In this document: piece after piece, positions 6,300-11,490 of the stretch
Layout of the letters: every line of letters begins with the position of its first letter
Position numbering within the stretch: the stretch's first letter is position 1
Origin: a virus
Taxonomy: Duplodnaviria > Heunggongvirae > Uroviricota > Caudoviricetes
Strand: one strand, 5' to 3'
IMG/VR virus record: IMGVR_UViG_3300031993_000051
Length of the DNA stretch: 11,490 nucleotides
Program-made: the position numbers and the translations under genes
Notes under the pieces: generated by a model
Told to the model about the DNA's origin: nothing
What the model saw: the letters and a program-made list of their open reading frames with translations, nothing else
The model's database searches: none

Positions 6300-6328
6300 A
6301 ATATAGAAAAAAGAACCACTTTTGTAAA
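6300..6328 (-). promoter_or_regulatory. Early-type promoter TTTACA-17-TATATT
   Basis: -35 at 6328..6323, 17-nt spacer, -10 at 6305..6300. Confidence 0.8.
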
Positions 6329-6339
6329 TGGTTCTTTTT
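6307..6339 (-). terminator. Intrinsic terminator of pncB, overlapping the next promoter
   Basis: GAACCATTT-ACAA-AAGTGGTTC (6334..6313) followed by T6; the A5 on the other side could allow bidirectional function. Confidence 0.85.
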
Positions 6340-7680: not shown

Positions 7681-7709
7681 AATATAGCAAAATAAAATGT
7701 ATTTGTAAA
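7681..7709 (-). promoter_or_regulatory. Early-type promoter of pncB, TTTACA-17-TATATT with extended TG
   Basis: -35 at 7709..7704, -10 at 7686..7681 preceded by TGC. Confidence 0.8.
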
Positions 7710-8763: not shown

Positions 8764-8982
8764 TTATTCCTTAATATTGATTTTGATTTGAGAACCTAAT
8801 GTTCTGATCACAATATCTACGTTTTCTTTTGTAACAGGTTTATGTAATTTTCTCACTACATCTTCAGCCAGTGCATAAATCTGCTTTTCTGTCGCGCCAT
8901 CGGCAACAGCAAGCAGATCTTGCCATACATCTGCAAGGTCATTAAGACCTTCTATATTATATCTGTCTGGAATATTAGGCAT
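8764..8982 (-). CDS. Small hypothetical protein coupled to pncA
   Basis: 72 aa; start overlaps the 3' end of pncA by 8 nt. Confidence 0.7.
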   Translation of the reverse strand: MPNIPDRYNIEGLNDLADVWQDLLAVADGATEKQIYALAEDVVRKLHKPVTKENVDIVIRTLGSQIKINIKE

Positions 8983-9562
8983 TGATTACATCAATCTGTT
9001 GACGCTGGAGACAGAGAATTGCAGCCTTCTGACCTTCTTCATCCAAATCAGCAATGCAGCTTGCATCGACCGTAATCTTCATATTCGGGAATGCAGCTCT
9101 GAGAATAACTGCGTTCGCAAGAACACAAATCGTGCTTACGAAACCCCAAATTTCAATTTCGTCGAATTCAATACCGAGATTTCTGATATATTCAGGAAGA
9201 TCGAGCTTACCGAATGTATACTTATCGACAGAATAGAAATTGTGCTTACCATCTTGGTTCTTCTTCTGAAGTTCATCAAGAATAGTCTTTTCAATTTCCC
9301 AACCATCGGTCAGCTTAATGCAGTGCGGAACTGGAAGCTTCTGACCTTCCAATGTTTCCTCATACGGCTTGCCTTCCATTGGAGGCCAACCAGTAGTAAC
9401 CTGCATCTTGTTAAAGTGAGTATCATGTGTTGCAATGATAGCACCATCCCAGTGCTTAATCTTGTTAACAATATTAGGAACCTTCGCCTGTGCGAATGGG
9501 TTTGCGAGAGCACCAGTAATAAAGTCTACCTGTGCATCAACTAATAAGCCGAGTTTTGCCAT
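8975..9562 (-). CDS. pncA: Nicotinamidase (isochorismatase/cysteine hydrolase family)
   Basis: 195 aa; catalytic Asp (LVDAQVDFITGAL), Lys (DKYTFG) and Cys (GFVSTICV); metal ligands THDTH and PHC with downstream GW; GAGG RBS. Proximity to pncB supports the substrate call. Confidence 0.85.
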   Translation of the reverse strand: MAKLGLLVDAQVDFITGALANPFAQAKVPNIVNKIKHWDGAIIATHDTHFNKMQVTTGWPPMEGKPYEETLEGQKLPVPHCIKLTDGWEIEKTILDELQKKNQDGKHNFYSVDKYTFGKLDLPEYIRNLGIEFDEIEIWGFVSTICVLANAVILRAAFPNMKITVDASCIADLDEEGQKAAILCLQRQQIDVINA

Positions 9563-9588: not shown

Positions 9589-9617
9589 AATTTAGTAAAT
9601 TTTTTTGTGTTTGTAAA
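9589..9617 (-). promoter_or_regulatory. Internal early-type promoter for pncA, TTTACA-17-TAAATT
   Basis: -35 at 9617..9612 (TTTACAA, as in the other copies), variant -10 at 9594..9589. Confidence 0.55.
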
Positions 9618-9622
9618 TATGT

Positions 9623-10267
9623 TTATTTATTTTCAGCTTCCTTATAAAGCTTTAAAAATTCTCTTGAAATAAAATTCGTATGAATTCGTTTTTCTTCAAA
9701 AGGTTTGTCAGGTCCATGAACTGCGACATGCATGTTATATGCCAATCTTCGCATACATTGTAAACCTTCTTTGTCATGTTCGAGTTCTTCCGGGAAATCT
9801 CCATGCACTTCATTCCAATACTGACTTCCTACGACAGTCATGGAATGCATAAGAAAATAAGAATTAAGATGAGCAAATGCTAGTTCATTACCTGCACGTC
9901 TCGAAACTGTTATTCCTGCTGCATACTTATTACGCATAACATTTGCGGCAGAATAAAATACACGAGACATAAAATTGGCAAGTTGACCAGTAATTCCAGC
10001 ATAATAAACTGGCGATGCAAAGATAAAACCATCGGCATTCTGTGCTTTTTCAATAAAGCGATTAACTAAATCGTTATCAAAAACGCAATGACCAAGCTTT
10101 TTATCTTTACAGACATTGCAACAAATGCAACCATTCATCTGTGGACCTAACCACATATTATCGATTACATTATCGCCGAGAATTTTAAATTCTTCTTCGA
10201 CTTCATGCAATGCCCTGGCAGTACAACCATCTCGGTGTGGACTACCATTTACCATCAAAATATTCAT
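9623..10267 (-). CDS. Iron-sulfur flavoprotein (Isf-like) / flavodoxin-family NAD(P)H-dependent FMN reductase
   Basis: 214 aa; NGSPHRDGCT FMN-binding loop, compact CxxCxxC...C motif (CICCNVCKDKKLGHC), ADGFIFASPVY, SRRAG, YWNEVHG. Confidence 0.85.
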   Translation of the reverse strand: MNILMVNGSPHRDGCTARALHEVEEEFKILGDNVIDNMWLGPQMNGCICCNVCKDKKLGHCVFDNDLVNRFIEKAQNADGFIFASPVYYAGITGQLANFMSRVFYSAANVMRNKYAAGITVSRRAGNELAFAHLNSYFLMHSMTVVGSQYWNEVHGDFPEELEHDKEGLQCMRRLAYNMHVAVHGPDKPFEEKRIHTNFISREFLKLYKEAENK

Positions 10268-11220
10268 TACTTTTCTGCCTCAAGTGCAATCAACGAGTTA
10301 CCACAAGTAATACGGTCTGCGTCTTCTTCATGCGACGGAATGAAAACGATAACCTGCCAACCTGCATCAACGAGCGGCTTTTCGAACTTTTCGTAAACGT
10401 CAAAATCAAATTCAGTAGTGAAGTTATTTACTGCTGCAGCTTCTGTTGCATGGATAGGAGTAATCTTGACAATGAAACGATCCTTGTCGAAATACTTGTC
10501 CATGAGAGCAGGGTCAAGATTGCACTTGCCAGTTGCTGCAAAGTTCAGAGTATACTTTCTACCAGCAGGAGGCGGAAGACGCTTTGCCAAATCCGAGATT
10601 TCCTGCAAGCTTAACGACTGGTTATTAAACATGTCGTTTCTATCAGCTTCATCAAGGGTATTGATAGAGAACTGAAGACCAATACCACCATTCCACTTTG
10701 CATCGTAACCAAGAGCACACCAGTCTTGGAGGAATGCTTCAAGCTTCTTATTGTTATTCGGAAGCATGGTAGAAACGACAGGATGATATTCCTTGAACCA
10801 GTTATTGGAAATATTACCAATATCACGAGCGACCTTAATTACGTTTGGATTCCAAGTAGGTTCGCCCATTCTTGCAAAGTGGACATTGAGTCTTTCACCT
10901 TGAGTGATCTTAGAGAATGCGATACCATTAACAATTTCGGACATCAATTCAAAGTAGGGGACATTTCCCTTGAAGCCGAACTTAGGACAGTCACAGAACT
11001 TACAGGATTCAAGACAACCCTTCTGGGTAGAAACCGTAACGACAAGCTTATCCGCTACATCGACGGGTTTGTGAACGACCTTTTCGATTCTTTTGGTATA
11101 GCCTAAGAAATCTGCCTTAATGTTATTTTCTTTACCATAATCGCCTACGTAAAGATACTCCAAGTTGAGGTCTGTGTCCGAGACAATCATGCCAGTGTGT
11201 GTTTGAGTTATAGTTCTCAT
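10267..11220 (-). CDS. RlmN/Cfr-like radical SAM enzyme, atypical
   Basis: 317 aa; STQKGCLESCKFC (CxxxCxxC at C69/C73/C76), RMGEP, VST, LQFSIN and C-terminal ITCG align with RlmN; lacks the RlmN N-terminal domain and the C118 equivalent; GGAG RBS. Confidence 0.8.
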   Translation of the reverse strand: MRTITQTHTGMIVSDTDLNLEYLYVGDYGKENNIKADFLGYTKRIEKVVHKPVDVADKLVVTVSTQKGCLESCKFCDCPKFGFKGNVPYFELMSEIVNGIAFSKITQGERLNVHFARMGEPTWNPNVIKVARDIGNISNNWFKEYHPVVSTMLPNNNKKLEAFLQDWCALGYDAKWNGGIGLQFSINTLDEADRNDMFNNQSLSLQEISDLAKRLPPPAGRKYTLNFAATGKCNLDPALMDKYFDKDRFIVKITPIHATEAAAVNNFTTEFDFDVYEKFEKPLVDAGWQVIVFIPSHEEDADRITCGNSLIALEAEK

Positions 11221-11233
11221 TTGTTATTCTCCA

Positions 11234-11305
11234 TTAAAATACTAATGTTAAAAATTTAAAAATTTCTTCCCATGTGAGGGTTACTAATTCTTCGTCTGTA
11301 AACAT
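11234..11305 (-). CDS. 23-aa small ORF MFTDEELVTLTWEEIFKFLTLVF (absent from the ORF track)
   Basis: AAGGAG at 11319..11314, 8 nt before the ATG; the stop TAA is followed immediately by the GGAG RBS of the radical SAM gene. Confidence 0.55.
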   Translation of the reverse strand: MFTDEELVTLTWEEIFKFLTLVF

Positions 11306-11321
11306 GGTAAAATCTCCTTCA

Positions 11322-11350
11322 AATATAAAAAAACAGACCACTTTTGTAAG
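11322..11350 (-). promoter_or_regulatory. Early-type promoter CTTACA-17-TATATT
   Basis: -35 at 11350..11345, -10 at 11327..11322; shares the 13-bp ACCACTTTTGTAA (plus strand) with the copy at 6315..6327. Confidence 0.65.
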
Positions 11351-11356
11351 CGGTCC
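11327..11356 (-). terminator. Intrinsic terminator (candidate attenuator terminator)
   Basis: GGACCGCTT-ACAA-AAGTGGTCT (11356..11335) followed by GT7. Confidence 0.75.
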
Positions 11357-11384
11357 TTAATTGTTAAATGTGGTAAAAAATTAT

Positions 11385-11462
11385 TTACAATATACTAACA
11401 ACCACAAACCGCGGTGACGATTTGCTGTATGATGAATAGTTGTAAGTATTATTAATAAACAT
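11385..11462 (-). CDS. 25-aa candidate leader peptide MFINNTYNYSSYSKSSPRFVVVSIL (absent from the ORF track)
   Basis: GAGG RBS upstream of ATG 11462; TAA at 11387..11385; codons 17-23 overlap a predicted antiterminator strand. Confidence 0.55.
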   Translation of the reverse strand: MFINNTYNYSSYSKSSPRFVVVSIL

Positions 11463-11490
11463 TTGTTTCCTCTGTCTTATATATAATTTT

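Follow-up and report, generated by a model that had tools for sequence, protein, structure and literature searches.

Upstream of a phage operon encoding a radical SAM protein, a flavoprotein and the nicotinamidase PncA, a short open reading frame is followed by an intrinsic terminator, and the question raised by this locus is whether ribosomes on the short frame could decide if transcription continues into the operon. Leader-peptide attenuation is a textbook form of bacterial control, and the initial annotation had proposed a device of this kind. The window, by which we mean the whole stretch of 11,490 nt that was analysed, corresponds to positions 651–12140 (reverse) of a 59-kb viral contig. 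Most of its close relatives were recovered from bovine or sheep guts, and their contigs reach about 418 kb; the source is thus a rumen jumbo phage, T4-like as far as promoter boxes and gene content indicate. All features described below lie on the minus strand of the window.

The leader and its conservation

The leader begins with a T4-type late-promoter-like box, TATATATA (11478..11485), located 16 nt before the start codon and overlooked in the initial annotation. Boxes of the form TATA[A/T]ATA, which are similar to the T4 late-promoter consensus, TATAAATA (PMC1524935), stand before many of the contig's genes. Judging from this motif, the box is the probable leader promoter, with late activity and a predicted start at about 11473. 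Behind it, in agreement with the initial annotation, a ribosome binding site (GAGG, 11469..11472) precedes an ORF of 25 codons (11385..11462), and the stop codon lies 29 nt, as against the estimated 30 nt or so, from an intrinsic terminator (11327..11356) with a 9-bp stem (11356..11335), an ACAA loop and a T7 tail. The codon counts given earlier for this ORF were also correct. Compared with Rfam, the leader matches no family at the gathering score (the best overlap is Trp_leader with 20.7 bits vs 41, E 2.3), and a T-box identity was rejected by eye, as the UGGNACC core is missing.

The leader is intact in about 30 loci of the same clade, in which the radical SAM DNA is 89–98% identical; this count refers to readable loci, one further assembly having a gap at the leader. 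A first peptide-based pattern for metagenomes matched only this clade and chance hits. Four further lineages were found (L091/L092/L173, L135, L195 and L214), which score 66–93 bits with a model built from the window clade alone; PncA identity between lineages is 47–61%, except for the sisters L195 and L214 at 93%. The elements common to all lineages are the late box (its ATATATA core is present in 5 of 5), the RBS (AAGG outside the window clade), the start codon, TCATCAT, AAATCG, GCGGTTT, GACCGCTTACA and a U-tract with TATATT. We found no leader homologue in GenBank phages and none when the covariance model was run on 61 genomes from the genus to which a Fibrobacter locus belongs, and a pattern scan of GTDB returned chance matches and the same phage binned into one MAG. 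That MAG belongs to Methanobrevibacter (L171 / G007:C83), and its phage content is probably due to faulty binning and would not indicate the host.

Ribosome binding site, start codon, frame and in-frame stop are kept in all five lineages; these rumen jumbo phages, though divergent, are related to each other and hence not independent. The ORF has 23–25 codons in relatives, the start-to-motif distance is 24 or 27 nt, and the distance from start to stop is 69, 72 or 75 nt; L091 has one additional base downstream of the serine motif, and a compensating change ahead of the stop restores the frame. About four length changes have thus occurred, all of them frame-preserving, for which chance alone gives odds of roughly 1 in 80; under the substitution load seen here, the probability that a frame stays open is 28–43% per lineage. 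From these odds and the preserved frame, we suggest that the leader ORF is probably translated. The selection on it is of another kind than that on a protein. Among 21 haplotypes of the clade, none of the 10 four-fold sites of the leader varies, compared with 62 of 129 such sites of the radical SAM gene; leader pN, on the other hand, is three times higher (0.107 vs 0.035), with amino-acid changes at codons 12, 13 and 17, within or bordering loops. Judged by this combination of invariant four-fold sites and raised pN, the constraint is on the RNA and not on the peptide.

Three folds and a modelled switch

The RNA element is real and is larger than first reported. In computed folds the leader RNA can adopt three structures: a long protector hairpin, an antiterminator and the terminator. 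The protector consists of a helix P1 (11461..11438 with 11403..11380, spanning 11380..11461), which is part of the minimum free energy fold in all lineages, a 12-nt bulge, and an inner hairpin P2 (11425..11417 with 11412..11404, spanning 11404..11425) that hides the core of the antiterminator. The antiterminator (11350..11412) encloses a small hairpin (11388..11373) and pairs 11412..11395 with 11367..11350 at 17 of 18 positions, including 5 G-U pairs, just as had been described; its mutual exclusion with the terminator also holds in the computed folds, with the protector added as a third helix. What had been overlooked is that free leader RNA adopts protector plus terminator, to which the antiterminator loses by about 9.6 kcal/mol.

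The antiterminator duplex (-18.4 kcal/mol) is far more stable than expected from shuffled leaders (-8.4 ± 2.3; p about 0.0008, that is, 0.08% of shuffles, a single-locus value uncorrected for the scan of the genome), and the contig's other hairpin-forming promoter cassettes reach only -5.5 to -8.9 in the same respect. A full switch, in which free RNA forms the terminator and loses it at some ribosome position, arises in 1.6% of 254 shuffles. In each lineage P1, bulge, P2 and terminator fold, with an antiterminator of -15 to -20 kcal/mol available.

P1 co-varies strongly. Its cognate strands pair with a mean of -15.6 kcal/mol compared with -7.2 for strands swapped between lineages (rank 1 of 24 permutations), and 17 of its pairs show double changes in a fitted alignment; P2 shows one C-G to U-A double change in an unfitted alignment. 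In the antiterminator, the 6-bp core never varies across lineages and covariation can thus not appear there, and the lower helix is kept without significant covariation, with 89% of cells paired and no double-sided change in the tool alignment and with rank 4 of 24 in the strand swap. Compensatory changes read by hand in this lower helix failed both the swap test and the pair counter and were not counted.

In our opinion the strongest argument for the antiterminator is a different one. The 5′ arm of the terminator (GACCGC) is invariant and complementary in all lineages to an equally invariant upstream strand (GCGGUU), while the 3′ arm varies and is mismatched in two lineages (G-G in L135, A-C in L091); the 5′ arm would appear to be fixed by its upstream partner while its terminator partner drifts. 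That the upstream strand is a duplicated terminator-promoter cassette was considered and rejected, as the distance to TATATT does not fit the register and no -35 box is present.

To model co-transcriptional folding, transcripts of the five lineages were cut before the 3′ arm of the terminator. Without a ribosome, the antiterminator core then has a probability of 0.00–0.10. When the P-site lies anywhere from codon 2 to about codon 13, which directly precedes a conserved Lys, the probability rises to 0.90–1.0, and from one codon past this Lys onward it is 0. At full equilibrium the terminator is favored for nearly every position of the ribosome, and in most alleles for every one, so the mechanism requires kinetic trapping during folding. 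The proposal that the fold depends on the ribosome is thus borne out co-transcriptionally in the model but not at full equilibrium. Three alleles of the window clade would be leaky, since their free RNA is already 0.65–0.80 antiterminator before the 3′ arm emerges.

From the sequence, its conservation, the modelled folds and the gene linkage, we infer that the leader is likely to be a trp-type ribosome-mediated transcription attenuator gating late and read-through transcription into a pncA-led NAD-salvage operon, a reading that the initial annotation had reached in outline and that gains from an ORF, a frame and a three-state fold kept by all five lineages. Late RNA polymerase would start at the TATATATA box and a ribosome would load on the leader. 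If no ribosome loads, P1 and P2 would form, followed by the terminator. A fast ribosome would pass codon 14 and cover the GCGGUUU strand, and the terminator would form again. If instead a ribosome is slowed between codons 2 and 13, most likely at the tandem UCA codons described below, it would break the protector and free the GCGGUUU strand, which could then capture the 5′ arm of the terminator and let transcription read through. Late in infection, the probable counter-defence genes of the operon are in this model likely to be on only when ribosomes slow.

Probable control codons and the possible signal

The unpaired TCATCAT (11429..11435) encodes tandem UCA serine codons 10–11, which are invariant in all lineages and are the probable control codons. 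They lie four and three codons before the conserved Lys, in the permissive part of the modelled leader and in its unpaired bulge. Serine is the only conserved residue outside the part fixed by pairing, with 2–5 Ser per control region, UCA UCA always included. The initial annotation had placed the sensing stretch on Asn, Tyr and Ser codons, of which the serine codons are conserved and the Asn/Tyr codons are not: Asn (2–4 per control region) and Tyr (1–3) shift in position between lineages, which leaves sensing through queuosine-family codons weak.

It is known that the choice of isoacceptor sets the sensitivity of an attenuator (PMC1183508). In pncA, pncB and nadE, UCA is used at 0 of 110 serine codons as against 20% contig-wide, an avoidance that is partly general, as high-GC3 genes use it at 6 of 101. 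We tentatively suggest serine/UCA decoding as the signal, a choice that we hold with slightly less than even confidence; a general slow-down of translation, which would trip the switch as well, is the main alternative signal for the attenuator. Serine synthesis via SerA, together with upstream glycolysis, needs NAD+, and because of this need a loss of NAD would, we reason, starve Ser-tRNA. Slow UCA decoding could then be a proxy for depletion of NAD+ by host defence enzymes, answered by late transcription of NAD salvage as a translation-coupled counter-defence; as an account of why the switch exists we regard this as rather unlikely. A point against the attenuator is the mismatch between its serine codons and what the operon produces. 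In contrast to classical amino-acid biosynthesis attenuators, no serine gene and no tRNA gene stands behind the leader.

Several of these observations could also be read as a ligand- or protein-controlled RNA switch, in which P1, the UCAUCAU bulge and P2 would bind an NAD-related metabolite or a protein, binding would hold the terminator state and the ORF would be incidental or auxiliary. Such a switch would account for the strong covariation of P1 and for an unpaired UCAUCAU that is fixed at every position, third codon positions included, and pncA would be a natural target of metabolite feedback. It would not be expected to conserve an RBS, a start codon, a frame and a stop through indels, nor to share its late-box, short-ORF and terminator layout with codon-matched leaders at five tRNA blocks (see below), and no Rfam riboswitch matches the leader; we therefore consider it improbable.

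The early promoter and the downstream genes

The initial annotation had cautioned that a promoter overlapping the terminator could bypass the control, and this was well founded. A putative early sigma70-type promoter (11322..11350; -35 CTTACA, 17 nt, -10 TATATT) lies within the terminator in every lineage. It is one of 11 intergenic copies of a promoter motif in the 59-kb contig, a family that had been missed, with copies in the window at 1163–1199, 1939–1967, 6300–6339, 7681–7709, 9589–9617 and 11322–11356, several of which carry the -35 box inside a terminator hairpin. As repeated intergenic hairpins fused to an early promoter, they are PeSL-like: in the PeSL elements of T4-like phages (PMC2839356, PMC4122927), terminator hairpins are likewise fused to early promoters and repeated through a variable region. 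Unlike these, the copy at the leader alone has an upstream ORF and an antiterminator, and its stem sequence is fixed by a partner, whereas the sister cassettes have other stem sequences and no comparable upstream partner. The full leader has no second copy in the contig or in related contigs, where weaker matches to the model are such terminator-promoter cassettes. Given the overlap between the terminator and this conserved promoter, control by the switch is probably confined to late or read-through expression: the promoter would supply unconditional early expression, to which the switch would add conditional expression later. The same promoter makes read-through dispensable for early expression, which counts against the attenuator.

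It could thus be asked whether the leader is an independent late unit for a small RNA or micro-peptide that always terminates, the cassette insulating the operon and the antiterminator being a by-product of similar stems. The membership of the terminator in the 11-copy promoter family, the free fold of protector plus terminator and the lower antiterminator helix that lacks significant covariation all agree with this, as do radical SAM orthologues of 78–80% identity in other phages, which have no leader and in two cases have an early promoter directly upstream. RNA contigs give weak hints in both directions: in one run, one contig stops just before the terminator and the next starts just after it, and in another run a contig, which may be DNA, bridges it. 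Against permanent termination stand the peptide, which is not under protein-type selection, the 5′ arm, which is more conserved than its terminator partner, and the position of the leader, which stays before pncA while upstream and intervening genes change. We give this reading as little credence as the ligand switch, and continue to favor the attenuator.

The gene behind the leader in all lineages is informative as to what is controlled. In the window clade, a small ORF, the radical SAM gene (10267..11220) and a gene for a flavodoxin-fold FMN reductase-like protein (9623..10267) lie between the leader and pncA (8975..9562), which encodes a nicotinamidase of the isochorismatase family. The small ORF, which had also been overlooked, has 23 codons (11234..11305) and a strong RBS (11320..11314); it behaves as an ordinary small gene (pN 0.043 vs pS 0.455 in 21 haplotypes) and is specific to the clade, without a homologue in the loci outside it. 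Only pncA recurs behind the leader in all lineages: it comes first in L091 and L135 and after one small ORF in L195 and L214, while the genes upstream of the leader differ between lineages. The intervening ORF of L195 (L195:2736) and L214 (L214:590) has 50–63 codons, the L214 copy being shortened by a stop codon. The pncA of the window has an additional, weak promoter-like site, which is absent from L001-type strains. A phage-encoded tmRNA is found immediately after nadE in L195 (L195:10040-10389).

The radical SAM protein is a remote relative of RlmN/Cfr. An RlmN-like gene is present in the operon of three lineages, L135 has a different one, L195 has none, and outside the window clade it is never first behind the leader. 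As pncA is constant and the RlmN-like gene is inconstant and lacks Cys118, the leader, on this comparison of operons, is tracking NAD salvage rather than a Cfr-like gene. The protein belongs to a large phage-associated RlmN-like family in which the C-terminal Cys is kept and the resolving Cys118 is replaced by Thr (134 of 134 family proteins with the motif readable).

The initial annotation had instead drawn an analogy to erm/cfr leaders, and serine at the penultimate position of a nascent chain does favor stalling by phenicols. Yet, even with an RlmN-like gene in three operons and 2–4 Asn per control region, induction of a Cfr-like RNA methyltransferase by an antibiotic or ribosome-stress leader or by a queuosine-tRNA sensor is highly improbable given the absence or replacement of that gene in relatives, the Thr at Cys118, a score of 35 bits against an RlmN cut-off of 290 bits and Asn/Tyr positions that are not conserved.

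Leaders of tRNA blocks and known systems

The attenuator at pncA may not be alone in its phage family. The 165-kb contig with L214 carries about 40 tRNA genes in five blocks, each of which is preceded by a TATATATA box, an RBS, an ORF of 20–35 codons and a terminator that lies at least about 30 nt past the stop. These five leader ORFs (L274:17, 6509, 9598, 14853 and 17830) abound in the amino acids carried by the tRNAs that follow, respectively Thr/Met/Pro/Val/Asn, Ala/Glu/Ile/Phe/Val, Asp/Arg/Gly/His/Lys, Leu/Ser/Trp and Tyr/Cys/Ser/Gln/Met, and the 5′ arms of their terminators would be captured by upstream sequence until a ribosome nears the end of the ORF. The leader of pncA shares with them the late box, the short ORF, the distance of about 30 nt and the terminator, but precedes enzyme genes, whose product its codons cannot match. 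By the layout of these loci, late leader-peptide attenuators thus appear to serve this phage family as a system, and this makes it more likely that the pncA unit is one.

Among bacterial systems, the attenuators of amino-acid operons (trpL, hisL, leuL, thrL and pheL; PMC1183508, PMC3082878) have a similar short leader ORF with tandem candidate control codons, and trpL-type devices share the protector, antiterminator and terminator helices and the logic of stall-dependent read-through. The leader described here differs from them in being phage-encoded, in its late-promoter-like box, in the second promoter inside its terminator and in control codons that are not cognate to a NAD-salvage operon. 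In this last respect it would be closer to the uORF attenuators of bmrCD, vmlR and tlrB in Bacillus subtilis (PMC13689557), in which an anti-antiterminator and a terminator are likewise the default, stalling leads to the antiterminator, and the sensor reports translation stress rather than the operon product, as proposed here; the target in our case is phage pncA and NAD salvage rather than a resistance gene, and drug sensing is unsupported.

Preiss-Handler clusters with pncA, pncB and nadE have been described in gut NAD-jumbo phages (PMC11662467), a work in which leaders, promoters and attenuation are not mentioned, and there, as for NARP1-3 (10.1101/2024.02.11.579819, PMC13464706), restoration of NAD is a probable counter-defence, as we propose here. 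Phage pathways of NAD restoration are an active topic whose regulation is not addressed in the literature that we checked, and compared with these pathways the new part appears to be the regulation. In the literature searched, we found no phage-encoded leader-peptide attenuation that gates enzyme genes, and an attenuator gating phage NAD-salvage enzymes appears to be new. If the attenuator is real, a lytic phage would read the translational state of the infected cell and tune a probable counter-defence pathway accordingly, and the inducer of this 150-nt unit would reveal the kind of host stress that the phage takes to signal a loss of NAD.

Two further elements were noted outside the window. 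An atypical tRNA-like gene with a UGA anticodon (L275:974-1057), probably for Ser, scores 29 bits with the Rfam tRNA model and was missed by ARAGORN. At G000:C1:13558-13686, a late box and, behind it, overlapping inverted repeats that may form a pseudoknot or a switch precede a gene for a GIY-YIG-like endonuclease.
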